A stretch of 64,000 nt of DNA from Parcubacteria group bacterium (GTDB lineage: Bacteria; Patescibacteriota; Minisyncoccia; Phycocordibacterales; Phycocordibacteraceae): the NCBI GenBank assembly GCA_028286615.1, contig JAQBRG010000003.1:13125-77124 (forward strand), read 5' to 3'. Within the stretch, counting starts at the first letter, position 1. Each line of letters opens with the position of its first letter. This document shows, piece after piece, positions 39 to 64,000 of the stretch. The notes beneath the pieces were generated by a model. It made no database searches. It worked only from the letters and a program-made list of their open reading frames with translations, and was not told the DNA's origin. A program made the position numbers and the translations under genes.

Positions 39-122
39 GGTGCGCCGGGGAGGATTCGAACCTCCGAAGCCAGAGGCGGCACGTTTACAGCGTGCTTGTT
101 TTGACCACTTACCTACCGACGC
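39..122 (-). tRNA. tRNA-Tyr (anticodon GTA), class II with a long variable arm. The 3' end encodes discriminator A plus CC but not a full CCA.
   Basis: Read on the minus strand the sequence is GCGTCGG..GCACG-CTGTAAA-CGTGC..GGAGG-TTCGAAT-CCTCC-CCGGCGC-A-CC. The acceptor stem is 7 bp with one G-U pair. The anticodon stem is 5 bp with a 7-nt loop, U33, anticodon GTA and A37. The T-arm carries the canonical GGTTCGAATCC. A 13-nt variable arm with a small stem resembles bacterial tRNA-Tyr. The D-stem pairing is weak by my folding. Confidence 0.7.
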
Positions 123-7394: not shown

Positions 7395-7517
7395 AGAGTG
7401 TAAATACAAATGCTACTATTAATAACACACAACGCAGGGTTCATCTTCCAAAATTGTGCAGAGCAACAGAGGTGGAGGTCCCTTCCGTCTCGCTTTTGAA
7501 GTTAAGAAAATCGTAAC

Positions 7518-8516
7518 ATGTCAACAAATAAAATATCACAATCTCCTGCGCGTCTCGAACAAGGAGATCTTGTTCGAGTAATATCTTTTGGATTAAGCTT
7601 AAAAGGAGCATCTCTTTCTCAACGAGAAATTTGCAATATGAATCTGACCGCACTCGGTCTTCGTGTCTCTTTTGGTAAGCATATTGAATCAAGCGATGAG
7701 TTTGATACCTCCAGCGTTGCAGACCGAATAGAAGATTTACACGAAGCTTTGCTAGACCCTGAAGTCAAAATGATAATGTCTGGTTTGGGTGGCATGAACG
7801 CTGCACAAATTCTACAGTCAATAAACTGGGAGTTGTTGAGAGAAAACCCAAAGATATTTTGTGGATTTTCTGATATGGCGGTACTTGTAAATGCCATTTA
7901 CGCAAAAACAGGAATTGTAACTTATTACGGTCCTTTCTACGGCACTTTTGGAATGAAGAAGGGAGCTGAGTATATGTTGGAATCATTCCGATCTTGCATG
8001 CTGTCTGATGATCCGTTTGTTGTTAATCCCGCTCCTGATTGGAGTGATGATTGGTGGTGGGACGATCAAGAAAACAGAACTTTTGTTCTAAATACCGGAC
8101 CCCTTGTTATAAATGAAGGTGAAGCTCAGGGTAAGTTACTTGGCGGTCATATCACATCTCTAGCTACAATTTTCGGAACTGATTTTTGTCCAGACTTATC
8201 AAACGCTCTCCTTATGTTAGAGGAGAATAGTGAAATTAATCCAAGATCATTTGACCGTTTGCTTCAGTGCGTAATACTTCAAAAAGGCTTTGACAAAGTA
8301 AAGGCGATTTTGATTGGACGATTCACCACACCAACCAAAATAACTGACGAGATTCTAATAAAGATTATTCGCAGTCACCCTGAACTCTCTCAGATTCCAG
8401 TGGTTTCGAATCTGAGTTTTGGGCACACATACCCCCAATTCACTTTTCCGATAGGTGGTACTGGTCGGATAAATGCAAAAGAAAACAAAGTAACTTTTGA
8501 GATTCTTGATCATTAA
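7518..8516 (+). CDS. ldcA: LD-carboxypeptidase (peptidase S66, LdcA/MccF-like)
   Basis: The nucleophile motif GFSDMAVL is present, with C-terminal His/Glu in an LLGGHITSL...E context, about 330 aa. Confidence 0.8.
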   Translation: MSTNKISQSPARLEQGDLVRVISFGLSLKGASLSQREICNMNLTALGLRVSFGKHIESSDEFDTSSVADRIEDLHEALLDPEVKMIMSGLGGMNAAQILQSINWELLRENPKIFCGFSDMAVLVNAIYAKTGIVTYYGPFYGTFGMKKGAEYMLESFRSCMLSDDPFVVNPAPDWSDDWWWDDQENRTFVLNTGPLVINEGEAQGKLLGGHITSLATIFGTDFCPDLSNALLMLEENSEINPRSFDRLLQCVILQKGFDKVKAILIGRFTTPTKITDEILIKIIRSHPELSQIPVVSNLSFGHTYPQFTFPIGGTGRINAKENKVTFEILDH

Positions 8517-8529
8517 GACTTTATATTTT

Positions 8530-9948
8530 TTAAATATCAAGGTCTAAAAGTTCGGTCAGACTGTTTATGCTTAAGTACCTTGACTCATCCAAGTCTGAGA
8601 TGTTTTGTACACGCCATGAATTAGGATTCCTAAAATGAATTCCTCTAAGACCAGCCTGAAGTGCTGGCTCTATATCTGAACGTAAACTATTTCCTACCAC
8701 TAAAAATTCACCAGAATCAAGATTAAAATCGTACCTCAATCGCCCAAGCGAGCTTACATCTTTAGATTTTACGACGCAAAGTGCATGAAAGTATTCGGCT
8801 AATCCAGAGCGAGCAATTTTCTCAAACTGAATTGACAGTGGTCCTTGTGTATAGAGAACAAGTCCATCACCACGTTTCCATAGCTTTGATAGCACTGCAA
8901 TTGCATCGGCAGTCAAGGTTTCTGGCTGACTCCTTAGAGTAGGGATGATTGATTCAAATAACTCCGTGGGTCTGGGAATCAACTTTCCAGAAAGAAGGAG
9001 ATTCGCATAAATAGTCTCTAGAGAAATCTTAAAACCAGGCGCGCCAAAACCGTGCTCAAGTATTACTTTTTCCTCCATATCGTCTATCATCTGACGAACT
9101 TCTTGCTCAGTTATTTCCTGTAGGTAAGGAAGACAGTGTTCAATAAAATCATCAACTATTTTCATGTAAGCAATGTTGTCCTCCCATAGAGTGTCGTCAC
9201 CATCAATTATCCATGTTCTTCGAAAAGTCCCATCTAACGAAGCTGTTTTACAAAAGTAGTAATCCCCTTCTTCTGGGAAGACCGCTGGAATCGTGTGCTT
9301 GCCCTCAGAAAATTTACTGTAAAGATATCCAAAATTCTGCGGCGTAATCTCGCCAAGTAATTGCTCTGCGTTAACTGAAAAACCTGCCTCCTCAAAAGCA
9401 GTCAGTTTCTTTGGGTTGTTGCTAAGGAGAGAGATTTTTTTAATATCCATGTCCTTAAGGATTTTAAAAGCGAGCGAATAGATTCTACCGTCAGTTTCAA
9501 AAGCAAGCTTTTCATAAGCGCCGTAAGTGCTCAGAGACTGTGACTGCATGGTGTACATTCCTAAGTATTTTGAAAAGATACCTGCTCCACGCCCTTCTTG
9601 AAATAAATGAATCAGTACTCCATTTTCTTGTCTCAAAATATCAATCGAACGCAGGAGCTGGCTGCGACAGTCGCAATCAAAGCTTCCTAGTATGTCGCTG
9701 TTAGCGCATGACGAATGAAGTCTTATTGGAACTACACGGGAAGTGTTTAAAAATTCAGGTTCATTGAAGATTACAACCAATGCAGTTTGTTCCTTATCAG
9801 TGTAAATACAGGAATACACGAGACCATTGCTGGTAAAATGTCTAACAAATGGAGTTTTCGTAGTCTCTTCGTCGACTTGTATCGTCGGATCGTAGAGAGC
9901 GTTGTTTATTTGCTCTGTCCCAATATTAGTTTTTCGTGCCGATGTCAT
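8530..9948 (-). CDS. fusion protein: N-terminal GTP cyclohydrolase II (RibA)-like domain plus C-terminal HAD-superfamily hydrolase domain
   Basis: The RibA zinc site is present as RLHSSCANSDILGSFDCDCRSQL, with QEGRGAGI and LSNNPKKL (compare E. coli RVHSEC..CDCG, RQEGRNIGL, LTNNPKK). The C-terminal half carries HAD motif I, IIDGDDTLWED. Confidence 0.75.
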   Translation of the reverse strand: MTSARKTNIGTEQINNALYDPTIQVDEETTKTPFVRHFTSNGLVYSCIYTDKEQTALVVIFNEPEFLNTSRVVPIRLHSSCANSDILGSFDCDCRSQLLRSIDILRQENGVLIHLFQEGRGAGIFSKYLGMYTMQSQSLSTYGAYEKLAFETDGRIYSLAFKILKDMDIKKISLLSNNPKKLTAFEEAGFSVNAEQLLGEITPQNFGYLYSKFSEGKHTIPAVFPEEGDYYFCKTASLDGTFRRTWIIDGDDTLWEDNIAYMKIVDDFIEHCLPYLQEITEQEVRQMIDDMEEKVILEHGFGAPGFKISLETIYANLLLSGKLIPRPTELFESIIPTLRSQPETLTADAIAVLSKLWKRGDGLVLYTQGPLSIQFEKIARSGLAEYFHALCVVKSKDVSSLGRLRYDFNLDSGEFLVVGNSLRSDIEPALQAGLRGIHFRNPNSWRVQNISDLDESRYLSINSLTELLDLDI

Positions 9949-53234: not shown

Positions 53235-54788
53235 TTATTCAGCAGTACGCTCAACAAACTTCTCAAGCACAGCACGAAGGTCCTTCTCGGTTGATTCTCC
53301 AATCTCTCGAGTTGTACGAATAGCAGCGAGTACGCCAACCGCCTCTCGATTAAGGAAGTCCTGAAGACGTTCCTCAGCTGCGGCAGTTTCCATAGGCGCG
53401 AACGTGTCGAAGTATCCGTTCACCGCGGCGAAGATCACAGCTGCTTCCATCTCGAACGCGAGCGGCTTGCCATTAGGCTGCTTGAGCATCTCTGTCATGC
53501 GCTGTCCGCTATCAATCTGCTTCTTGGTGTTCGCATCGAGATCTGAAGAAAACTGCATGAAGGCTTCGAGTTCACGGAACTGAGCAAGCTCGAGCTTAAT
53601 CTTTCCAGACACTTTCTTCATGGCCTTGGTCTGTGCGGCAGAACCCACGCGAGACACCGACACACCTACGTTAATAGCGGGGCGAAGACCTTTGTTGAAG
53701 AGATCGGTCTCAAGGAAGATCTGTCCGTCCGTAATAGAAATTACGTTCGTTGGAATGTAGGCAGAAATGTCATTCTCCTGCGTCTCGATAATAGGAAGTG
53801 CGGTTATAGAACCTCCACCCTTTTCCTTAGAAAGTTTTGCAGCACGCTCAAGAAGACGTGAGTGCAAGTAGAACACGTCTCCAGGGTATGCTTCGCGGCC
53901 TGGTGGGCGACGAAGAAGAAGAGACATCTGACGGTATGCAACGGCCTGCTTTGAAAGATCGTCGTATACAACGAGCACGTCCTTACCTTGCTCCATGAAA
54001 TGCTCGGCGATAGCAGCCCCTGCAAACGGTGCGAGGAACTGAATAGCAGCAGGAGCAGATGCAGGAGCGGTTACCACAATGGTGTAGTCCATAGCACCCG
54101 CTTCAGTGAGCTGGCCTACAATACGTGCAGTCTTACTCTCCTTCTGTCCAATAGCTACGTATACACAAATAGGACGGGTCTTAGAGTCTTCAGACTTCTG
54201 GTTGAGGATGGTGTCGATAGCAACCGTAGTCTTTCCTGTGCCACGGTCTCCAATGATGAGCTGGCGCTGTCCACGACCAATCGGTGTCATGGCATCGATT
54301 GCCTTGATACCAGTGTGAAGCGGCGTGTTAACAGGAGAGCGATCCATAACGCCGTATGCCTCGCTTTCAATAGGACGCATGGTTGAAGCGCCTGTTGGTC
54401 CTTTGCCGTCAACAGCTTCTCCAAGCGGATTAAGTACGCGACCAACGAGTGAGTCTCCTACGGGGATGGAAAGTAGGCGACCAAGACGACGCACGAGCAT
54501 TCCTTCATATACTTTTGAAGAATCTCCAAGAATAACGGCACGAACACCGTCCTCTTCGAGGTTAAGCACGAGACCATATACAGGAGCAGCATCCTTAAGC
54601 GCTTCTTCAAGAGAACGGTCGAATGTTGGATCGAAGAGCACCATCTCCGTCATGATCGCGCCTTCAAGGCCGTCGATCTCTGCGATACCGTCACCGGTTG
54701 CGCGTACGATGCCTGTTTCAGCAGCGTTCTCTTTCGCGGGACTGAATCCTGCGATCTCGTTCTCGATACGTTTGATGATGCTCTCCAT
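53235..54788 (-). CDS. atpA: F1 ATP synthase alpha subunit (start trimmed to [10 protein letters not shown])
   Basis: Walker A GDRGTGKT is present. The supplied ORF extends 29 codons into atpH. Confidence 0.95.
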
Positions 54789-54790
54789 AC

Positions 54791-55156
54791 TTAGTTCGTA
54801 ATCTTCTGGTAAATCTGAATAAGGGTGCTCTTGGCGGAATGGTCTATAAGCTTGCTTCCTGTACGTGCTCGCCAACCACGTAACAGGCTAGGGTTCACCG
54901 TTACTTCTTCTGCTTCAATGCCGGCTAGAGAAGCTGCTTTTCGCGCATGAGCTTTCTCAGCATCGCTTGCAACCTCAAGAGTTGGTGCGAGTTTCTTTGT
55001 GCGTGCTTCCTCATGCTTCAGTTGTCGCAATATGCCCGGAAGCAATTTGATACGTCCCTCGGCTTTCAAGTGCGCGACAAGCGAATCAGCAAGAATCTTC
55101 TGGTTTTCACCTTTCTTCGATAGCTCGATTATTGCCTGTGCGTACTCTTTTTCCAT
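54791..55156 (-). CDS. atpH: ATP synthase delta (OSCP) subunit, short form
   Basis: Position between atpF and atpA. OSCP C-terminal-like sequence. Confidence 0.65.
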
Positions 55157-55160
55157 GAGA

Positions 55161-55610
55161 CTATGCCTTGCCCTCCTCTACTGCTTTTCCTGCGGCAAGA
55201 ATAGCAAGACGTGCAATCTCGTTCTCGCTGTCTCGAAGTATCTTTGCCGCTGTTTCTTTTGCGCGGGCATCTGCATCTGCGGCAATTGCTGCAGAACGCG
55301 CTTCGGCTTCTTTAACAATGCGAGACTTCTCAGCGGTTGCCGCGTCACGAGCTGAGGCAACGATGCCTTCAGCTTCAGTTTCTGCGCCCTTAACAACTGT
55401 TGAAGCTTCTTCGTCTGCGCTTGCGAGCTTCTTGGTTGCCTCTTCAGCATCAAGGACTCCCTGCGCAACCTTTCGGCGTCGCTCGTCCATTGTTTTCATA
55501 ACCGGCTTATACAAAAGCCAGGTTAGGGCAACAAAGAGTATGCCGAAGTTAATAAGCTGCGCGAGAAGCAGCTTGCCGTTAATACCGAAGGCTTCGAAAA
55601 GTTGGTCCAT
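55161..55610 (-). CDS. atpF: Fo ATP synthase b subunit
   Basis: An N-terminal TM helix then a long charged helix (AEEA-rich). Confidence 0.8.
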   Translation of the reverse strand: MDQLFEAFGINGKLLLAQLINFGILFVALTWLLYKPVMKTMDERRRKVAQGVLDAEEATKKLASADEEASTVVKGAETEAEGIVASARDAATAEKSRIVKEAEARSAAIAADADARAKETAAKILRDSENEIARLAILAAGKAVEEGKA

Positions 55611-55631
55611 AGATAAGGCCCGTGTGGCTGG

Positions 55632-55883
<252 letters not shown>

Positions 55884-55921
55884 TTATTAATGCTCCATCC
55901 CGGAGCCACATCGAAACAAGG

Positions 55922-56680
55922 CTAATGCGCCTCGTTCCCATGCGGTTCCATGACGGCGAGCTTGATGAAGAACAGAGTCAACATCGCGAACACTACGGCC
56001 TGAATGAACCCAACAAAGACCTCAAAGGCCATAAGGGGTACCGGCAGCAGGTACGCGAAGAAGAACCCTGCAACCAGGATCATCACCTCGCCAGCAAAAA
56101 TGTTTCCGAAGAGACGGAACGAGAAGGAGATGAGACGACCCAGGTTCGAAATGATCTCAATGAGACCAACCACGAAGTTAACCGGTGAGCTAAAATTAAC
56201 ATATTTCCCGGCGTATTTAAAGAAACCGAGGACTACGATTCCTGTCACCTCAATCGTTATGAACGCGATAATAGCTAGAGCTAGAGTCATGTTGAGGTCT
56301 GCCGCAGGCGCGCGAAGAAGCGGTACTAATTCCTCTCCATTGTTGAAGAGCACAGAGCCAACTCCCGGTATGAATGCCATCTCGTTAGCAACCAAGACGA
56401 AGAGGAAGATCGTCATGATGAGCGGGAAGAACTTGCGAGCGAGCTTCTCGTTCTCAAGTGTTTCAGTCATGTATCCGAGCACCCCTTCAAATAGCCACTC
56501 AACCGCAGCCTGGAACTTGCCGGGGATAAGGGCGAGCTTCTGGCGGAAAAAGAAGGCGAATCCAATCAATACCACAAGAACAATCCACGTCATGAGGAGA
56601 GAATTGGTAATAGGAAGACCCAGGAAGGTTCCTAGTTGTTCAGCCTTAAGCACCACGTGAATACCGCTTTCGTGCTCCAT
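55922..56680 (-). CDS. atpB: Fo ATP synthase a subunit
   Basis: Polytopic, with the conserved Arg in ...SFSFRLFGNIFAGE. Confidence 0.85.
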   Translation of the reverse strand: MEHESGIHVVLKAEQLGTFLGLPITNSLLMTWIVLVVLIGFAFFFRQKLALIPGKFQAAVEWLFEGVLGYMTETLENEKLARKFFPLIMTIFLFVLVANEMAFIPGVGSVLFNNGEELVPLLRAPAADLNMTLALAIIAFITIEVTGIVVLGFFKYAGKYVNFSSPVNFVVGLIEIISNLGRLISFSFRLFGNIFAGEVMILVAGFFFAYLLPVPLMAFEVFVGFIQAVVFAMLTLFFIKLAVMEPHGNEAH

Positions 56681-56813
56681 ATCTATACGAAAAATAGACC
56701 CCTGTGGGCCATACCCTTATGCATTACTAGCATTCTACCAGAGCCTGGAGATTGGGTAAATGTAAAGGCTCCGTGGGAGACAGAGTCTCTACACGGAGCC
56801 TTATGGGCCCGCT

Positions 56814-56999
56814 TTACTGTTTAAGCGAATTAATTGAGTCAAGCAAATGCTTGCCGGTCCACATGATGGTATAACACACGGCCAACAGACCGAAGCTCGC
56901 TGCAACACCCAAGGGTATATTGTTATGCGTTCCAACAGTAACAAGAGCCCCTACGACTGAAAGGTATATAACTATTATTCCAATCTGAATGGTATTCAT
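56814..56999 (-). CDS. small 2-TM membrane protein upstream of the atp operon (AtpI/AtpZ-like position)
   Basis: 61 aa, two hydrophobic helices. Confidence 0.3.
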   Translation of the reverse strand: MNTIQIGIIVIYLSVVGALVTVGTHNNIPLGVAASFGLLAVCYTIMWTGKHLLDSINSLKQ

Positions 57000-57069
57000 T
57001 TAGCCACTCCATCTCTTTAGAATGAATCCTAAGAAAACAATAGCAGATTTATTATAAATTGTCAATACT

Positions 57070-57630
57070 CTACTTCCCTTCCTTCAACGCCTCCAAATCT
57101 GCCAGCACCCTCTGCACATCCTTGCTCAACTGCTCAAGAGCTTCAACCTTGGTTAACTTCTTCGCTGCCTTGTCTGCAGCAAGTGTAGCGGTCTCCTCCT
57201 CGCTCAGTTCCTCCACATCCTCCTGAATCTCGTCGATGTCCTCGGAGATCTCTTCAATATCCTCTTGAATCTCTCCCATATCCTCTCCAAGCTCTTCAAC
57301 GTCTTCCTGAATCTCGTCGATGTCCTCCTCAACCTCGCGCAAACTCTCCGTATGTCGGTTAACGGTTATCTGAATGAAGATGGCTAGATAGATCGCTTCA
57401 AGAGAAAGAATGGTTGTAAGGATAAGGAGCATCAAAGACCATTCCAATATTCCAAAGAGAGCAAGCGAGAAGAACGCCGCAAATGCGACGGTATGAATGA
57501 GAAGCGACTGAACTGAACCTATTGAGGCGATAACGCGCTCTATGGCCGTCGGGTCGATAGTTGCTTTGGGCTTCTTATCGCGCGGCATATCTTCTGACCC
57601 TACCACTGTTGTCCTTGGAGTGTCCACCAA
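57070..57630 (-). CDS. DUF1003-like membrane protein with a C-terminal acidic tandem-repeat tail
   Basis: The TM core LTTILSLEAIYLAIFIQITVNRHTESLRE resembles the DUF1003 ...VSLEAIFLSTFVMISQNRQ... region. It is followed by 13-aa repeats of EDIDEIQEDVEEL. Confidence 0.55.
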   Translation of the reverse strand: MVDTPRTTVVGSEDMPRDKKPKATIDPTAIERVIASIGSVQSLLIHTVAFAAFFSLALFGILEWSLMLLILTTILSLEAIYLAIFIQITVNRHTESLREVEEDIDEIQEDVEELGEDMGEIQEDIEEISEDIDEIQEDVEELSEEETATLAADKAAKKLTKVEALEQLSKDVQRVLADLEALKEGK

Positions 57631-57709
57631 TTACTCACACCATGCGGTGCATATCCTTTCATTTCACTTTATACTATTAGTAGTGCCCAACAATCTCCCC
57701 ACGACACTA

Positions 57710-58741
57710 ATGCCGCATCCGCGGTACCCGAAGAAGAAACCGTTTGCAAAAGCTGCAACGAGTCTTAAGACGTACTCGCCACTTGTTGGTGCCGTTGCTG
57801 TGCTCGCTATCTCTTTCTTCTCTCTCCCAAGCATTGTTGCCATGGACATCGAGCATGAGGCGGAGAAAGCATCAAAGCCCGCGTTCCCCGTGAGCGTTGA
57901 TCCACTTCACAAGTTAATAACCGAGAGTCCTGAGGTTGAGGCCTTGCTTGCAGACGACACCGCTCTTTCTGCTTCAGCTATTAATGCTGGGAGCATTCTT
58001 TCTTGGATAGCGAGTGCCATTTCCCTTTCCCCTGCGTATAAGCAAGTTGCAGGAAGCGATACTGCAATTGTAACTATCAAGCCAGGGTATAGAGAGGAGG
58101 AAGTTGCTCAAGCGTTTGGAAGCGCGCTTGGCTGGACTGCTGCTGAGAAGAAGTCTTTCCTTGATCAAGTACACAGCACGCCCCCCAGCCTTTCTGAAGG
58201 AGAGTTTGTTCCAGGTTCGTATGTTGTTGAAGGGCTCGCATCAGCTGAAGACATACAGGCAATTCTTAACGAACGATTCTCAAAAGATATTCTTGCTCGC
58301 TATGGCACAACGACAGAAGCAGTGCTTCCGCTTGAAGACGCTCTGACTATTGCTTCCATGCTTGAACGCGAGACACGAAACCCAGCTGAGATGCGTCTTA
58401 TATCTGGCATCATCTGGAACCGTCTATGGAGCGGCATGAACCTGCAGATAGATGCAACGCTTCAGTACGCCAAAGCAACCCAAACAACCTCTAAGAGTTG
58501 GTGGCCTAAGGTGGTGCCAGACGACAAGTACGTAAAGTCTCCGTACAACACCTATAAATACAAAGGTCTTCCTCCAGGACCTATATCAAACCCCTCAACA
58601 GCCGCTCTTCTGGCAGCTCTCAATCCAAAGGCAACGGACTGTATCTTTTACTTCCACGACAAGAACGGACACTTCACCTGCTCCAAGACGTACAAGGAAC
58701 ACGTAGCCGCCCTCAAGAAAGCGTACGGACAAGGAAAGTAG
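57710..58741 (+). CDS. mltG: endolytic murein transglycosylase MltG (YceG family); start trimmed to MPHPRYP
   Basis: An N-terminal TM helix, then the YceG signatures LERETRNPAE, LQIDATLQYA and SPYNTYKYKGLPPGPISNPSTAALLAALNP. Confidence 0.85.
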   Translation: MPHPRYPKKKPFAKAATSLKTYSPLVGAVAVLAISFFSLPSIVAMDIEHEAEKASKPAFPVSVDPLHKLITESPEVEALLADDTALSASAINAGSILSWIASAISLSPAYKQVAGSDTAIVTIKPGYREEEVAQAFGSALGWTAAEKKSFLDQVHSTPPSLSEGEFVPGSYVVEGLASAEDIQAILNERFSKDILARYGTTTEAVLPLEDALTIASMLERETRNPAEMRLISGIIWNRLWSGMNLQIDATLQYAKATQTTSKSWWPKVVPDDKYVKSPYNTYKYKGLPPGPISNPSTAALLAALNPKATDCIFYFHDKNGHFTCSKTYKEHVAALKKAYGQGK

Positions 58742-58748
58742 CGGAGAG

Positions 58749-59153
58749 CTACATTGCGAAGAACTTAATAGCAAGGAGATACGAACCTCCCGCAGCAAGT
58801 GCAGATACCACAACTCCCCACATAAGATCTACGATCGAGACAATGCCTGGCCAGTTGGTTAGGGTTGCCCAGTTCGTGAAGTCATAGGAAGCGTATACGG
58901 CAAGCCCCAGAAAACCCCCGAGAAGCATGGCCTTAAGAAGCGAGCGAGCTTCAAGAGCCGGAGCAACAGCAAAGTATGCAAGAGCAAAACAGAAGATTAT
59001 GTAGAACGCGAGAGCCGCGGGCCACACTACGCTAGGAGAAAGCAGGTTCCCCATTTGTTCTCGATAGAAGCTGTGCGCAAGAAGACCAATCCATAGCAAA
59101 TCTAGGAGGAAAATAACCGGGAATGCGAGTGCCGCGAGGATGGTTGTTTGCAT
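58749..59153 (-). CDS. 4-TM membrane protein (DUF2177-like)
   Basis: Hydropathy and size. Confidence 0.45.
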   Translation of the reverse strand: MQTTILAALAFPVIFLLDLLWIGLLAHSFYREQMGNLLSPSVVWPAALAFYIIFCFALAYFAVAPALEARSLLKAMLLGGFLGLAVYASYDFTNWATLTNWPGIVSIVDLMWGVVVSALAAGGSYLLAIKFFAM

Positions 59154-59848: not shown

Positions 59849-60458
59849 TTAAGACGCGTAAAGAGCCTTCTCTTGAGAACGCTTTTTAAGCCACGCGAGC
59901 GTAGCGCCCAAAGCACCAATGGCTGTAGCGGCGGTAGCAATAGCTAATCCTCCATTTGCCATGTCCTGACCAATAGTCTGCCATTGATTTGTAAGCGCTT
60001 CCTGCATATCCATAGCAGCATCTAACGTCCTGCCCTTCTCAGCTGCAAATGCGCCTCCAAGAACTGTTGCAAGGCCTCCTGACAAACCAAGCATAAAGGT
60101 CATGTGGAGCGCGTGCTTAGTTTTTTCATATGCAGCGTCTATCTTTGCACGCGTAAGGAGCGATGTAGATTTGGATTCCTCTTGTGCTGGACTAGCTAGG
60201 CGAGACTCGGCTTCCTGCATGATCTCGCTGTTCTGCTGAAGATTTACACCTAGTCTCTGTTCTTCTGCTGCCACCTCTTCCATAACCTCAGCGTGACGTT
60301 CTGGCGTTAAAGCAGCTGGTTCCGAAGTTTCTGCTGCAATCTCAGTATTGCTATCCAGGTTCTCAATGGCAGCCTGTGCTTCTGATATTTCTTGTGGATT
60401 TAATGCGCGAGCTTCTCCGTCAGGAACAGAATCGAACTTTGGTGTACTTTCGCTCATA
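59849..60458 (-). CDS. protein with an acidic N-terminal region and C-terminal glycine-zipper hydrophobic segments (start probably MSESTPKF)
   Basis: GLSGGLATVLGGAFAA and GGLAIATAATAIGALGATLAWL GxxxG-type zippers are present. Confidence 0.4.
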
Positions 60459-60719
60459 TATATTGGGTTATGTAGAAAGACTATCATGATTCCTTCAGAA
60501 TCAACTCTTTGGTAGGACGTCTGGGGATAGTACAAAACCTCCAAAAAGTGGTTTTTAAAGCTTCTAATTTTGATGGTCATTGGTGCACCTCCCTCATCCA
60601 ATCGCAGCCTATACATTTCCTTAGGCTAGTTGATTCGTGGAATGGTCTGAAGGGTTGAAATTGCCCTTCGGAGCCTAGAGACTCTCGGAGATTAGAACCT
60701 ATACCTTCGAATGTTTTCT

Positions 60720-61298
60720 TTATCCATTCGTTCTGGAGGATAGACGAAGCGATTCAGGTAGATACTGATCGATTTCAGCATCAGACCAGGTAAACTGCTC
60801 ACCGCCAGGTGTGCCAGCCGTGTTCAAGCGCGTTTGAGCCTCGATATATTCCTTAGGACCAGTTTGAGGGGCGAGGTCGGATATGACTTGATATTCCGCT
60901 TGCAACGAATCGCGCCGCGCAGACACAGCATCTTGGGTTGCTCTGTCGTTCATAATATCAACGATCAGGGAGCGGTACTTGTCTCTCAACTGCATGTATT
61001 TCAAGGCGGAATTCTTGTGCGAGACCGCGATCTGGTCAAAGTTAAAGGTCAACTGAACGATGAGGAAGAGAATCTCAAATGATGCAACGGCTGAGCCGAT
61101 ATAAGAGAAAACAAAATTTGAAGGGTTCCCCACCTGTAAAAGCAGCATAAGTAGCGCAACAGCGGTGATTCCGATGTTTGCAATCTTTACATGCTTACCC
61201 CATTTACCCGCATTCTCAGCAGCAACCTCCTGCACCTTGTGCGAAAAGACGCTATTTGCGAACGACTGCCTAACGATTGAAAGATTTCTGGTATCCAT
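60720..61298 (-). CDS. SLATT-like 2TM effector protein (start probably MDTRNLS, directly after the nucleotidyltransferase stop)
   Basis: A short N-terminal region is followed by two TM helices (IANIGITAVALLMLLLQV; FVFSYIGSAVASFEILFLIVQLTF), then a helical C-terminal domain. It is operonic with the upstream CD-NTase-like gene. Confidence 0.55.
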   Translation of the reverse strand: MDTRNLSIVRQSFANSVFSHKVQEVAAENAGKWGKHVKIANIGITAVALLMLLLQVGNPSNFVFSYIGSAVASFEILFLIVQLTFNFDQIAVSHKNSALKYMQLRDKYRSLIVDIMNDRATQDAVSARRDSLQAEYQVISDLAPQTGPKEYIEAQTRLNTAGTPGGEQFTWSDAEIDQYLPESLRLSSRTNG

Positions 61299-61300
61299 AA

Positions 61301-62644
61301 TTATCCGATGGGAACGAAAACGTGTCCGGTGGCCACGCATTGTCCATTCTTAATCATATAGCATTCGACATAGTGTTCGCCATGGTAAAGAGTGCTTTCC
61401 TTCTTTGTCTCAGTTCCGTTATCATCTGTTATCTCACCACGCAAAGCGCCTAGGTTATTCGCTTCATTGCCGAAGTTTCTAACCTTCCACTTCACACTAT
61501 ACGGCGGCGGAACATTGTGAGAGGTAATCTGGAAGACTAGACTGGCGCTTTTTTGGATACGAAAACCGCGAATCTGAAATTCGCTAAGGAGCCAGTGATT
61601 CTTGCGCCAACCTTTCTGATTGACATTCACATCCACCGTGACCGAATACGTCGGATTAATGACGGTAGGAATTCCATATGTACGGTCAAGGAACTCCTCA
61701 CCAAACGAAGGGAACAAGGTCTGTAGTTTTGCGACAATCTGATGGAAGGAAACAGTGAGCGACTTAGTCACTTCAGCAGAAGGGAAATTATCGCCGAATA
61801 CCTTCCTCCATTCCATGGAGGCTTCGGGTAAATCTCCATTATTATCGAAATCTAGAGCTTTAGCCGCGCGCGCGCCGGCGGTCTCAACTCGACTCTGCCA
61901 TGCGTTACCGAGACTGATAGCTTCACCTGAAGCAGTGATGACAGTTCCATTCACACGAGTTAGCAAATACTCGAAAAATCCGTTCACGAGAATGGCGTAT
62001 CCTTTCCCCGATATCGCATCTCCTAGGGAGTCCAGATACTGCACAACCAACACCTCGATTACAAAGGACTTAATTGGAACACCGCAGTGGTCGGCCCACT
62101 TCTTGCAGAAGCGAACCAGGTCGAGCGTCTTACCTGTTTTCTTACTTGAGTCACGAATGTACTGCATCTCCCGTACCGGATCGTAGATTTGCCATGAGCC
62201 ACCATTCTCCGTGTCGGGAATCCGGAATGTGCCATCGACAAGTTTCCATGCCGGCAGGAGTTCGACGTTATGGGTGTTGTCTGCGAACTCGATAACCACC
62301 ACTTTACCGAAGGCCTTTATGACTTCGGTTGTCGTATACGTGCTCTTCAGGGCTGAGCGAATCTCTTGAAGAAGTTGCGATTGCTTATTCCCTGCGAGCG
62401 AATCGAATCGCTTAAATTCAGTTGCAGGCATTTGAAAGAGGATGTCGATATCTCGAGGAGGTCGAATATACGTTGCCTTTCCGTAGGAGCCGACAAGGAG
62501 TTTGGTTGAGCCGTCGTATGTCGTGTTCGGATAATAAGCATCATGCAATGCCTTAGAAACGCCGTTATATTTGCGTCGAGCATCTTCCTCTTGAACATCA
62601 GTTAGCCTGATGGTCTCTAGGAATTTCTTGAAGAGCGATTCCAT
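61301..62644 (-). CDS. SMODS/CD-NTase-type (cGAS/DncV-like) nucleotidyltransferase with a roughly 150-aa C-terminal beta-rich extension (possibly an AGS-C-type sensor)
   Basis: The pol-beta-type NTase motif VGSYGKATYIRPPRDIDILF (GS...DxD) is present, with a downstream acidic residue in VVVIEFADNTHNVELLP. The N-terminal helix is typical of the fold. Confidence 0.65.
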   Translation of the reverse strand: MESLFKKFLETIRLTDVQEEDARRKYNGVSKALHDAYYPNTTYDGSTKLLVGSYGKATYIRPPRDIDILFQMPATEFKRFDSLAGNKQSQLLQEIRSALKSTYTTTEVIKAFGKVVVIEFADNTHNVELLPAWKLVDGTFRIPDTENGGSWQIYDPVREMQYIRDSSKKTGKTLDLVRFCKKWADHCGVPIKSFVIEVLVVQYLDSLGDAISGKGYAILVNGFFEYLLTRVNGTVITASGEAISLGNAWQSRVETAGARAAKALDFDNNGDLPEASMEWRKVFGDNFPSAEVTKSLTVSFHQIVAKLQTLFPSFGEEFLDRTYGIPTVINPTYSVTVDVNVNQKGWRKNHWLLSEFQIRGFRIQKSASLVFQITSHNVPPPYSVKWKVRNFGNEANNLGALRGEITDDNGTETKKESTLYHGEHYVECYMIKNGQCVATGHVFVPIG

Positions 62645-63039
62645 GGCGTCTTCATTTTACGCCTCCTCGTGGTAGACGGCTACCTACCTGTTTTTAGGTT
62701 CTAAGTATCGTAGGGTTCCGGGAATATTAGAACCTTTAACGAATAAGGAAGTAAAACACGAAAACTCCCTTTCAAGAGTTTCGTGAACGAATGTGGACTC
62801 CCTTAGAGTTAATATGAACCAAATAATACCTGAATTGAAGCTCTACATGGACCTAATGATGTTTGAGCGAGAGTTGACCGCTAGAATTTAATAGATATCG
62901 TATTTATCGCATTATCGTTTTGTACCCCCCGGGGGGTGCCCGTAGGCCATTTTTCTTACCCCCAGCCTTACGGGATTAGGCTAATTTAAATATCTGTCAT
63001 AAAACCATTTGAGAGTTTTAAGCTAGTTCCACATTAAAT

Positions 63040-63453
63040 TCACTCTCCTTTCTTTAGTACCAGAGTTTGAAATTTCAGCCAAACATCTTCACTTGAGCCA
63101 TCGATGATCCTTTTCAGACACCAGCTGTAAGGAAATATGACACTGTCATCAGATAGAAAGTAGGGGAAAGAATCTTTACCTGACTCCTCCGAATCTCTTT
63201 GCCAATATCCTTTTTCAAGATTCCTTTCAATAACTGAAATAACATAAGCTGCAAACTCTAGAGCGATACCTCTTACCCCCTCTTCTTGCTTATCTTTTTT
63301 ATAGTCCTTATGAATTACACCCAAAATAACTTCTATTTGTTTTACTGACTCTATCGAGAAATCCAATTTAATATTACTTCCCGCGGCAATTTGAATTGCT
63401 AGGTCGGTAAGTTCATTTTGAAGTTTTGAGAGCTTAGCGGCGGTCGTTTTCAT
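63040..63453 (-). CDS. hypothetical protein in an AT-rich island (start probably MKTTAAK)
   Basis: ORF only; by eye well below the window average in GC. Confidence 0.35.
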   Translation of the reverse strand: MKTTAAKLSKLQNELTDLAIQIAAGSNIKLDFSIESVKQIEVILGVIHKDYKKDKQEEGVRGIALEFAAYVISVIERNLEKGYWQRDSEESGKDSFPYFLSDDSVIFPYSWCLKRIIDGSSEDVWLKFQTLVLKKGE

Positions 63454-63479
63454 TACTTTATACTTAAACAACGAAGATG

Positions 63480-63758
63480 TTAAATATTTATAAGTCCACA
63501 AATATTAAGAAGTGAAGCTATACCTATTAAAATAAAGACCACTCCTATCATTCGAGAGAAAAAGAACATGGACGGCTTACCCATTTCCTTTGCCTGCTTC
63601 TTAAAAAGAATGAAATGGGTTTTTCTGTAAAGAGATTCTAAACCTTTAATATTTCCTGCGACAAATTGGCGAGTGAAAAATGCTGCAAATACACCTAGAA
63701 CCAGAGCTCCAGCTGACCAGAAAATATTGTAGACTGTTACAATATTCTCCATTATCAA
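63480..63758 (-). CDS. small 2-TM membrane protein in the AT-rich island
   Basis: Two hydrophobic helices. Confidence 0.35.
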   Translation of the reverse strand: MIMENIVTVYNIFWSAGALVLGVFAAFFTRQFVAGNIKGLESLYRKTHFILFKKQAKEMGKPSMFFFSRMIGVVFILIGIASLLNICGLINI

Positions 63759-63762
63759 TCCA

Positions 63763-64000
63763 CAACCTCTTCTCTATAATCTTCAGCAAGACATTCAAAT
63801 GTCCCCTCTTTCATAAAGAAGGCATAATGTTTCAAACTCGGATTACTTAATTCAGTTTTTTCTCCCTGGATATAAAATTGATTTAAATATTCTAAAGGAG
63901 CATTTTTAATTTCATAGAAGGAATGCCACTCAATTTCTGGGTAATCATTAATATTCCAAAAGCCATCATTATATTTATAGTAGCCCTCGTCATTAGGGGA
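63763..64000 (-). CDS. 3' fragment of a CDS running off the window end (AT-rich island)
   Basis: An open frame on the minus strand to the window edge, ending ...FECLAEDYREEVVD*. Confidence 0.3.

Follow-up and report, generated by a model that had tools for sequence, protein, structure and literature searches.

Organization of the locus

The last part of a 64,000-nt stretch of DNA (contig JAQBRG010000003.1 of the Parcubacteria group assembly GCA_028286615.1), called the window here in its whole length, holds three small minus-strand genes in an AT-rich patch, a non-coding spacer and, beyond the spacer, a type I operon of the cyclic oligonucleotide-based antiphage signaling system (CBASS), in which a CD-NTase gene is followed by an effector gene. 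A preliminary description of this sequence had proposed that the patch is a horizontally acquired module, of toxin/immunity type or derived from a phage, and that the spacer is a leader with an unusual palindrome, possibly an integration boundary or a regulatory RNA. The toxin/immunity proposal fits the surroundings. The small genes trail the gene of an Rhs polymorphic toxin, and the predicted toxin is the C-terminal tip of that giant gene, which lies outside the window.

The neighborhood beyond the window was read from L001, a 15.4-kb metagenome contig found by exact look-up of the 90-aa product of the middle small gene. L001 is 100% identical to the window over an overlap of 1401 nt and extends it by 7.8 kb. 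It carries on a single strand a giant open reading frame (ORF) and, 11 nt past its stop codon, the start of a gene termed imm1 here; the gene of a two-transmembrane (2-TM) protein follows 2 nt past the imm1 stop and ends 26 nt ahead of the ATG of a third gene, imm2. The 395-nt spacer, the CD-NTase gene and the SLATT_4 effector gene then succeed one another on the same strand (Table 1). With the Rhs stop codon at the window-equivalent position 64180, the toxin gene begins about 180 nt beyond the window end. The three short minus-strand ORFs seen earlier were confirmed, the third with its stop at 63755 and leaving the window, as was the 2-TM character of the 90-aa product, whose hydrophobic segments span residues ~4-32 and ~60-90.

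Base composition of the patch

From the CD-NTase gene through the spacer to 63040..64000, the G+C fraction (GC) falls from 0.478 to 0.408 and then to 0.351. This last value is the lowest among all 960-nt windows of the 64 kb (z = -3.6; mean 0.468, standard deviation 0.033, minimum outside the patch 0.385). The abrupt drop that had been placed after 62645 is real, but it proceeds in two steps, from ~0.47-0.50 before the patch to 0.41 in the spacer and 0.35 in the small genes, with no single break at 62645. GC at the third codon position (GC3) is 0.24-0.33 in the three small genes compared with ~0.44 in the long ORFs of the window, so that their AT bias is not merely an amino-acid effect; for imm1, GC is 0.319 and GC3 is 0.239. 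Composition is non-uniform in the sliding-window profile, with its minimum in the patch, and the small genes are atypical in GC3. Elsewhere in the window, a mildly lowered GC (~0.40, at 7-14 kb) belongs to ordinary housekeeping genes.

On L001 the low-GC stretch falls within ~7500..9000 and measures only ~1.15-1.3 kb. It begins at the stop codon of the Rhs gene, and GC is back at 0.46-0.50 inside that upstream gene. Among the loci fetched for comparison (numbered L below), immunity genes are AT-rich in all hosts examined (GC 0.28-0.38), whatever the GC of the neighboring toxin gene: 0.287 beside a toxin gene of 0.40 in L003, 0.280 beside 0.43 in L008, 0.311 beside 0.43-0.46 in L013 and 0.382 beside 0.45 in L009. 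This agrees with the classical description of Rhs elements, in which the core is GC-rich while both the extension behind it and the downstream ORF are AT-rich (quoted in PMC11083783). The low GC and GC3 of the small genes would reflect that such immunity genes are exchanged horizontally, in the manner of cassettes.

The Rhs toxin tip and its predicted immunity gene

The product of the giant gene exceeds 2552 aa, its N-terminus lying beyond the end of L001. Pfam models recognize in it an SpvB-like region, FG-GAP repeats, two Ig-like domains and six RHS_repeat matches. The Rhs core ends in '...NNPISQKDPNGR' (DPNGR), a DPxG-type motif, after which comes a tip of 188 aa; the end of the NCBIfam model Rhs_assc_core is matched weakly, below the family cut-off. 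The same core end bears different tips in L009, L012 and L013.

Relatives of the tip were sought with HMMER among 1.84 billion cluster representatives, using as query the tip of protein P0004, which is 54% identical to that of this genome. At E <= 1e-3 the search returned 836 relatives. In the best 150 of these, the match sits at the C-terminus or within ~20 residues of it, in proteins of 89 to 2370 aa, and RHS repeats are present in seven of the eight longer tip-bearing proteins that were scanned. The same tip also ends hemagglutinin-repeat (CdiA-type) plasmid proteins of Duffyella gerundensis and Burkholderia ambifaria, while the closest relatives, P0003 and P0004, are orphan modules with a fragment of Rhs core at the start and the same toxin domain at the end. 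Occurrence at the C-termini of such varied carriers characterizes a mobile domain of polymorphic toxins (Zhang et al. 2012, PMC3482391). A ParB/sulfiredoxin fold was modelled for the last ~110-120 aa, the model being made on the 54%-identical P0004 tip, and an alignment of 27 tips displays an invariant N and R (N-x-R-S), NTR in most members and a near-invariant N-terminal Ser. The tip has no match in curated toxin families, nor in PDB sequence searches with a single sequence or a profile. Judged by this distribution, the Rhs tip belongs to a large family of predicted toxin domains that lacks curated annotation.

Homologues of imm1 (142 aa, 39-42% identity) lie 1 nt behind the P0003 and P0004 tips, in the lineage of L002-L007 and in L008. 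The same pairing of tip and imm1 in three lineages is the standard argument for a cognate immunity gene, and imm1 is accordingly predicted to encode the cognate immunity protein of the Rhs C-terminal tip. It has no match in Pfam, PADLOC, NCBIfam, PHROG or PDB sequence searches. In L008 the orphan tip/imm1 module stands behind another full-length Rhs gene and that gene's own immunity-type gene, and in L003 it lies within an array that includes an Imm33-family gene. The further immunity-type genes beside these orphan copies (Imm33, DUF6572) are found at L003 2749..3036 and L008 4857..5198, and they point to poly-immunity or orphan-module arrays in other genomes of the candidate phyla radiation (CPR).

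Outside the CPR, the distant tip in the Duffyella CdiA protein is followed by an unrelated ORF. This ORF was considered as an imm1 homologue for a shared '[KR]H[YF]..F..E.TF..LA' motif and was rejected at an hhalign probability of 0.6%. Separately, a lone ORF of 143 aa, 27% identical to imm1 with the invariant residues kept, was seen in L061 (3989..4420), which is plasmid C of Sinorhizobium americanum (NZ_CP013110.1, 470951..471382), with no adjacent toxin gene. This megaplasmid ORF may represent one more orphan immunity gene, at a great distance from the CPR.

A predicted orphan immunity gene and a small membrane protein

Homologues of imm2 likewise follow Rhs proteins. They lie 1-20 nt behind them in three lineages, represented by L009, by L010/L011/L012 and by L013/L014/L015. 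The Rhs tips ahead of them are conserved among themselves and different from the tip at the window, and both of the tips scanned match the Pfam family Tox-REase-7 (E = 2e-22 in L009, E = 3e-24 in L013). A tblastn search with these two tips against the 64-kb window and L001 yielded noise only, with no orphan tip fragment. Because Tox-REase-7 was not found at the locus, imm2 is classed as an orphan immunity gene.

Between imm2 and its L009 copy, DNA identity is 85%, and the aligned part extends from ~2 nt ahead of the ATG to 2 nt past the stop. Alignment with L009 is lost in the flanks, and the Rhs cores are ~70-74% identical and only in patches. By these alignments, imm2 behaves as a discrete cassette. 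The AlphaFold model of its product is confident (predicted local distance difference test, pLDDT, 90.6) and helical, and its sole PDB neighbor is the uncharacterized protein BT_1490 (3hlz). Neither imm2 nor its homologues P0006 and P0024 have a Pfam match at E <= 0.1-0.5, and PDB sequence searches with imm2, as a single sequence or as a profile, gave no match. The immunity families linked to Tox-REase-7 are Imm23, Imm54 and HEAT-repeat proteins (Zhang et al. 2012, PMC3482391), and since imm2 matches none of their models, it would represent an additional, unannotated family.

The 2-TM gene is tightly packed between the two immunity genes, which suggests co-transcription. Its product is a singleton cluster in a collection of 15 billion proteins, has no match in the fetched loci or in plasmids and obtains only a sub-threshold match in Pfam. 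That it is a further, orphan immunity protein or an accessory protein is a tentative proposal and on balance doubtful; in that case the gene could represent a new membrane immunity or accessory protein of CPR Rhs systems.

Accessory status and genomic context

The distribution of the block was examined in 40 loci from related metagenome-assembled genomes (MAGs), fetched through a scan with the neighboring YceG protein. Of these, about 25, from Patescibacteria MAGs, retain the gene order atpA-atpF-atpE-atpB ... DUF948-YceG-DUF2177 (window 53235..59153; loci L020-L056). At this position, all of these syntenic relatives are without CD-NTase, SLATT, imm1, 2-TM, imm2 and Rhs genes, and likewise without the three small ORFs between the CBASS genes and DUF2177. 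The block is hence accessory. The stretch from DUF2177 to ddl-uvrC-uvrA differs in every relative; in this genome it contains the Rhs gene and immunity genes together with the type I CBASS and the three small unknown ORFs. It is therefore a variable hot spot in which the Rhs locus, with its immunity tail, has the CBASS operon as a neighbor. The suggestion of horizontal acquisition in the preliminary description gains from three observations: the atypical GC3 of the genes, the 85% DNA identity of imm2 to its L009 copy over the ORF only, and the absence of the block at this place in the ~25 relatives.

The CD-NTase gene has no relative in the genome-contig collection. Relatives in metagenome contigs are only 30-43% identical and have different neighbors, and the two closest are ORFs of 306-307 aa, too short for the C-terminal AGS-C. 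For lack of AGS-C in these relatives and because of their different neighbors, the leader ahead of the gene cannot be compared across homologues.

Two further genes of the region deserve mention. Directly downstream of the CBASS effector gene, at 59849..60616 on the minus strand, lies an ORF of 255 aa (202 aa as called) that has no family match; it is absent from all syntenic relatives and may belong to the variable block. At 57070..57630, also on the minus strand, lies the gene of a 186-aa protein that contains a highly acidic repeat (EDIDEIQEDVEELGEDMGEIQEDIEEISEDIDEIQEDVEEL), matches DUF948 only below the threshold and is conserved next to YceG in the relatives.

Table 1. Genes and sequence elements at the Rhs-immunity and CBASS locus. 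Positions are those of the window unless L001 is named.
Feature	Position	Strand	Evidence or remark
Rhs C-terminal toxin tip, 188 aa	L001 7094..7660; window-equivalent 64180..64746		C-terminus of giant gene
imm1, full gene (JWN64_228), 137 aa	L001 7672..8085; extends to window-equivalent 64168	-	
imm1, 3' part (81 codons and stop)	63755..64000	-	translation
2-TM gene (JWN64_227, MDB5264656.1), 90 aa	63480..63752	-	ORF, two hydrophobic segments
imm2 (JWN64_226), 137 aa	63040..63453	-	ORF and 20 homologues
Non-coding spacer, 395 nt	62645..63039		between Rhs-immunity gene string and CBASS operon
Imperfect inverted repeat, CCCGTAGG(N19)CCTTACGGG	62939..62974		adjoins palindrome; fold z = +0.46, +0.35
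Perfect 12-nt palindrome, CCCCCCGGGGGG (C6G6)	62925..62936		unique as this sequence
Terminator-like hairpin, 10-bp stem with one bulge, loop 4-8 nt by fold	62757..62785; with tract 62751..62785	-	
Perfect 9-bp inverted repeat, AGGTTCTAA(N22)TTAGAACCT	62696..62735		between terminator-like hairpin and CD-NTase ribosome-binding region
Shine-Dalgarno-like GAGGAGG, then after 6 nt a 12-codon upstream ORF, MKTPWNRSSRNS (stop)	62668..62662; ORF 62655..62617	-	
CD-NTase (SMODS and AGS-C), type I CBASS, outside the AT-rich patch	61301..62644	-	Pfam, PADLOC; GC genome-like
SLATT_4 two-transmembrane CBASS effector	60720..61298	-	Pfam, PADLOC

The spacer ahead of the CBASS operon

The small genes end upstream of the spacer and the CD-NTase gene starts downstream of it, which makes the spacer the trailer of the patch and the leader of the CBASS operon. 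The palindrome, described earlier as part of a leader of the small genes, accordingly belongs to their trailer. It is present as described, 2 nt from the position first given, and both the imperfect inverted repeat beside it and the 9-bp inverted repeat with its 22-nt loop were found again. Of the features described, the AT-richness is beyond chance, and the palindrome and repeats are unremarkable in the window. The window contains 27 perfect 12-nt palindromes, compared with 16.5 +/- 4.4 in shuffled sequence, and one other is composed entirely of G and C; distinct perfect hairpin repeats of at least 9 bp number about 20.

The segment with the palindrome folds no better than its shuffles (z = +0.4), and no U-tract follows the palindrome on either strand. 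The C6 run of the palindrome has a possible second partner in a G5 run within the loop of the imperfect repeat. The imperfect repeat is not conserved downstream of imm2 in L009 and has no U-tract. A likeness in G-runs and C-runs between that L009 region and the spacer was dismissed as chance, only 'GGGGTAA' being held in common. The C6G6 palindrome and the neighboring repeat have no demonstrable role, and no function is assigned to them.

Three local elements lie closer to the CBASS genes on the gene strand. The terminator-like hairpin is followed on the gene strand by UUUUACUU, a short U-tract; it has a folding energy of -12.4 kcal/mol (z = -2.0) and stands ~255 nt past the imm2 stop and ~107 nt ahead of the CD-NTase ATG. 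A consensus scan did not report it, probably because of the bulge. Hairpin and U-tract form a plausible candidate for the end of the Rhs-immunity transcript. The 9-bp inverted repeat folds with z = -3.1 on the gene strand and could be an operator of the CBASS operon or a hairpin in its 5' untranslated region (UTR). Finally, the 12-codon upstream ORF runs out of frame across the CD-NTase ATG (62644), which lacks a Shine-Dalgarno sequence of its own at normal spacing; a 5-bp hairpin, GGCGU(N9)ACGCC, brackets the start of the upstream ORF. From this arrangement, translational coupling or a leader peptide could be envisaged for CBASS.

The spacer has no blastn similarity to the fetched loci, to the rest of the window or to the phage collection, and tblastn of the ORFs of the fetched loci against it produced noise, with neither a pseudogene remnant nor a dispersed repeat. 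No sigma-70-like site turned up on the spacer's gene strand in a consensus promoter scan, and the CBASS promoter accordingly has no assigned position. Most likely, the spacer would hold the end of the Rhs-immunity transcript together with the promoter and 5' UTR of CBASS. A more elaborate scheme, in which the spacer is a cis-regulatory CBASS leader whose hairpin stops read-through, whose 9-bp repeat serves as an operator or 5'-UTR switch and whose upstream ORF gates CD-NTase translation, is unlikely. We know of no description of leader-peptide control of this kind for CBASS.

Interpretation and alternatives

Taken together, the gene order, the homologies, the conserved adjacency of toxin and immunity genes, the composition and the absence from syntenic relatives make it very probable that the AT-rich patch forms the tail of immunity genes behind an Rhs (YD-repeat) polymorphic toxin in a Parcubacteria/Paceibacteria MAG, with the toxin gene beyond the window. 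The layout is that of a typical polymorphic toxin, with a resident immunity gene, an orphan immunity gene and one unknown small gene. The Rhs tip is presumably delivered into neighboring cells, and imm1 would neutralize it in the producer cell, by binding as we infer. Similarly, imm2 would protect against Tox-REase-7 nuclease tips on the Rhs proteins of competing relatives.

Several points weigh against this reading. The tip, imm1 and imm2 all fall outside curated families of toxins and immunity proteins, and their roles are drawn from gene context alone. The association of imm1 with its toxin is known from only three lineages. The Tox-REase-7 search covered the window and L001, and such a toxin may lie elsewhere in the 278-kb contig or the genome. 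The 2-TM gene has no detected relatives and might not be expressed. The GC of the Rhs toxin tip, 0.455, is only slightly lowered, unlike that of classical E. coli Rhs. Moreover, the terminator assignment comes down to one hairpin with a short U-tract (z = -2).

Other readings of the small genes are much less likely. They could be accessory or regulatory components of CBASS, with the spacer as an internal region of the operon, as they lie on the same strand immediately upstream of the CD-NTase gene and one product has two transmembrane segments like many CBASS effectors. Such an operon would be interrupted by a 395-nt spacer with a terminator-like hairpin, however, and its two parts would differ sharply in composition. 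The small genes have no match to a defense family in PADLOC or Pfam, and of the 15 other loci with imm1 or imm2 homologues none has a CD-NTase or SLATT gene, whereas 13 have an Rhs toxin tip directly upstream (L016 and L061 are without an adjacent toxin). Three distant CD-NTase relatives also have different neighbor ORFs, as judged without direct comparison to the small genes. Together these points leave a CBASS function of the genes highly improbable. The same holds for a self-contained toxin-antitoxin or bacteriocin-like module independent of Rhs, for instance a 2-TM membrane toxin with flanking antitoxins: the genes are indeed small, tightly packed and AT-rich, and one encodes a 2-TM peptide, but homologues of imm1 and imm2 occur without the 2-TM gene directly behind Rhs toxin tips, and no toxin-antitoxin, bacteriocin or holin family is matched.

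The abrupt low-GC block and its absence from syntenic relatives would also suit the remnant of a phage or integrative element, with the spacer palindrome marking an attachment (att) boundary. The start of low GC coincides exactly with the Rhs stop codon, which is what an immunity cassette would lead one to expect, and the phage origin and integration boundary raised in the preliminary description found no backing. The best PHROG match, at E = 0.27, is not convincing, and 50,697 phage records contain no DNA match; a search for direct repeats flanking the block returned none; the sole tRNA of the window lies at 39..122, so that none is within 60 kb of the site; and no integrase or transposase occurs among the genes of L001 and of the window end that were scanned against family libraries. 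We regard such a remnant as very unlikely. A structured regulatory RNA in the spacer, be it a small RNA, a riboswitch-like leader or an attenuator around the palindrome and inverted repeats, has in its favor a long non-coding stretch upstream of a defense operon, two local hairpins that fold better than shuffles (z = -2.0 and -3.1), G5 and C6 runs that permit alternative pairings, and, overlapping the CD-NTase start, a short upstream ORF preceded by a strong Shine-Dalgarno sequence. Nevertheless, the spacer has no Rfam match even at E <= 10, its folding as a whole stays near that of shuffles (z = -1.0 and -0.8 on the two strands), the palindrome segment gives z = +0.4, comparable palindromes and hairpins are common in the window, and the fetched loci hold no homologous leader and hence no covariation support. 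The regulatory RNA of the preliminary description is thus not borne out and is quite unlikely.

The immunity-tail reading of the patch explains a striking anomaly of composition by a well-understood architecture, and an exotic interpretation is unneeded. It places in a small-genome CPR bacterium an Rhs weapon, its immunity gene, an orphan immunity gene and CBASS, side by side in a hot spot between DUF2177 and ddl-uvrC-uvrA. Three families have been missed by curated libraries, namely the ParB/sulfiredoxin-like tip, imm1 and imm2, the last a new Tox-REase-7 immunity family, and all three could be added to annotation resources for toxins and immunity proteins. The current understanding of how such systems work is unchanged. 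Greater interest could attach only to the arrangement of a putative leader peptide and hairpin that precedes the CD-NTase gene.

Comparison with known systems

Among the elements discussed here, the candidate terminator resembles Rho-independent terminators in that a hairpin is followed by a U-rich tract on the gene strand, and differs from them in its bulged stem and the shortness of the tract (UUUUACUU). The toxin tip can be set beside the families Tox-ParB and Tox-ParBL1, whose published signature is '[ST] ... [NT][RT][RT]' (Zhang et al. 2012, PMC3482391). Like them, it is placed as the C-terminal domain of a polymorphic toxin. Its fold, as modelled, is ParB/sulfiredoxin-like, and its near-invariant N-terminal Ser and its N-x-R, a possible counterpart of the Arg-containing motif DGHHR, resemble that signature. 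As for imm2, its homologues occupy the place of Imm23, Imm54 and HEAT-repeat proteins directly behind a Tox-REase-7 tip, whereas imm2 itself differs from these families in matching none of their Pfam models and in a helical model that resembles only 3hlz.

The locus as a whole is closest to those of the RhsA-RhsI type (work of Koskiniemi, Poole and Hayes; Zhang et al. 2012, PMC3482391; Poole et al. 2011, PMC3150448). It has a giant RHS-repeat protein with a core ending in DPxG[RE] and a variable C-terminal tip, which CdiA-type scaffolds carry as well; a short immunity ORF begins a few nucleotides past the toxin stop, and a low-GC immunity region stands behind a higher-GC core. In contrast to those loci, it comes from the MAG of a CPR host, its N-terminal part is of the SpvB/FG-GAP (Tc-toxin-like) kind and not linked to PAAR or VgrG, the tip and the immunity protein fall outside the curated families, and the tip is not strongly AT-rich. 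Novelty is limited to membership, that is, to tip, imm1 and imm2 as unannotated families and to a CPR bacterium as host.

Orphan modules of toxin tip and immunity gene, as well as immunity arrays, are established in Rhs loci and in those of contact-dependent growth inhibition (CDI) and type VI secretion systems (T6SS) (PMC3150448, PMC5361080, PMC3482391). For instance, poly-immunity is known from the T6SS immunity arrays of Vibrio cholerae (PMC5361080), and orphan cdiA-CT/cdiI and rhs-CT/rhsI modules have been described (PMC3150448). Compared with these, the array at the present locus is short, with two immunity genes and the 2-TM gene, and is free of an orphan toxin-tip fragment. It resembles them in that imm2 is kept without its cognate toxin, downstream of a resident toxin-immunity pair, and in that imm2 homologues elsewhere partner one specific toxin domain, Tox-REase-7.

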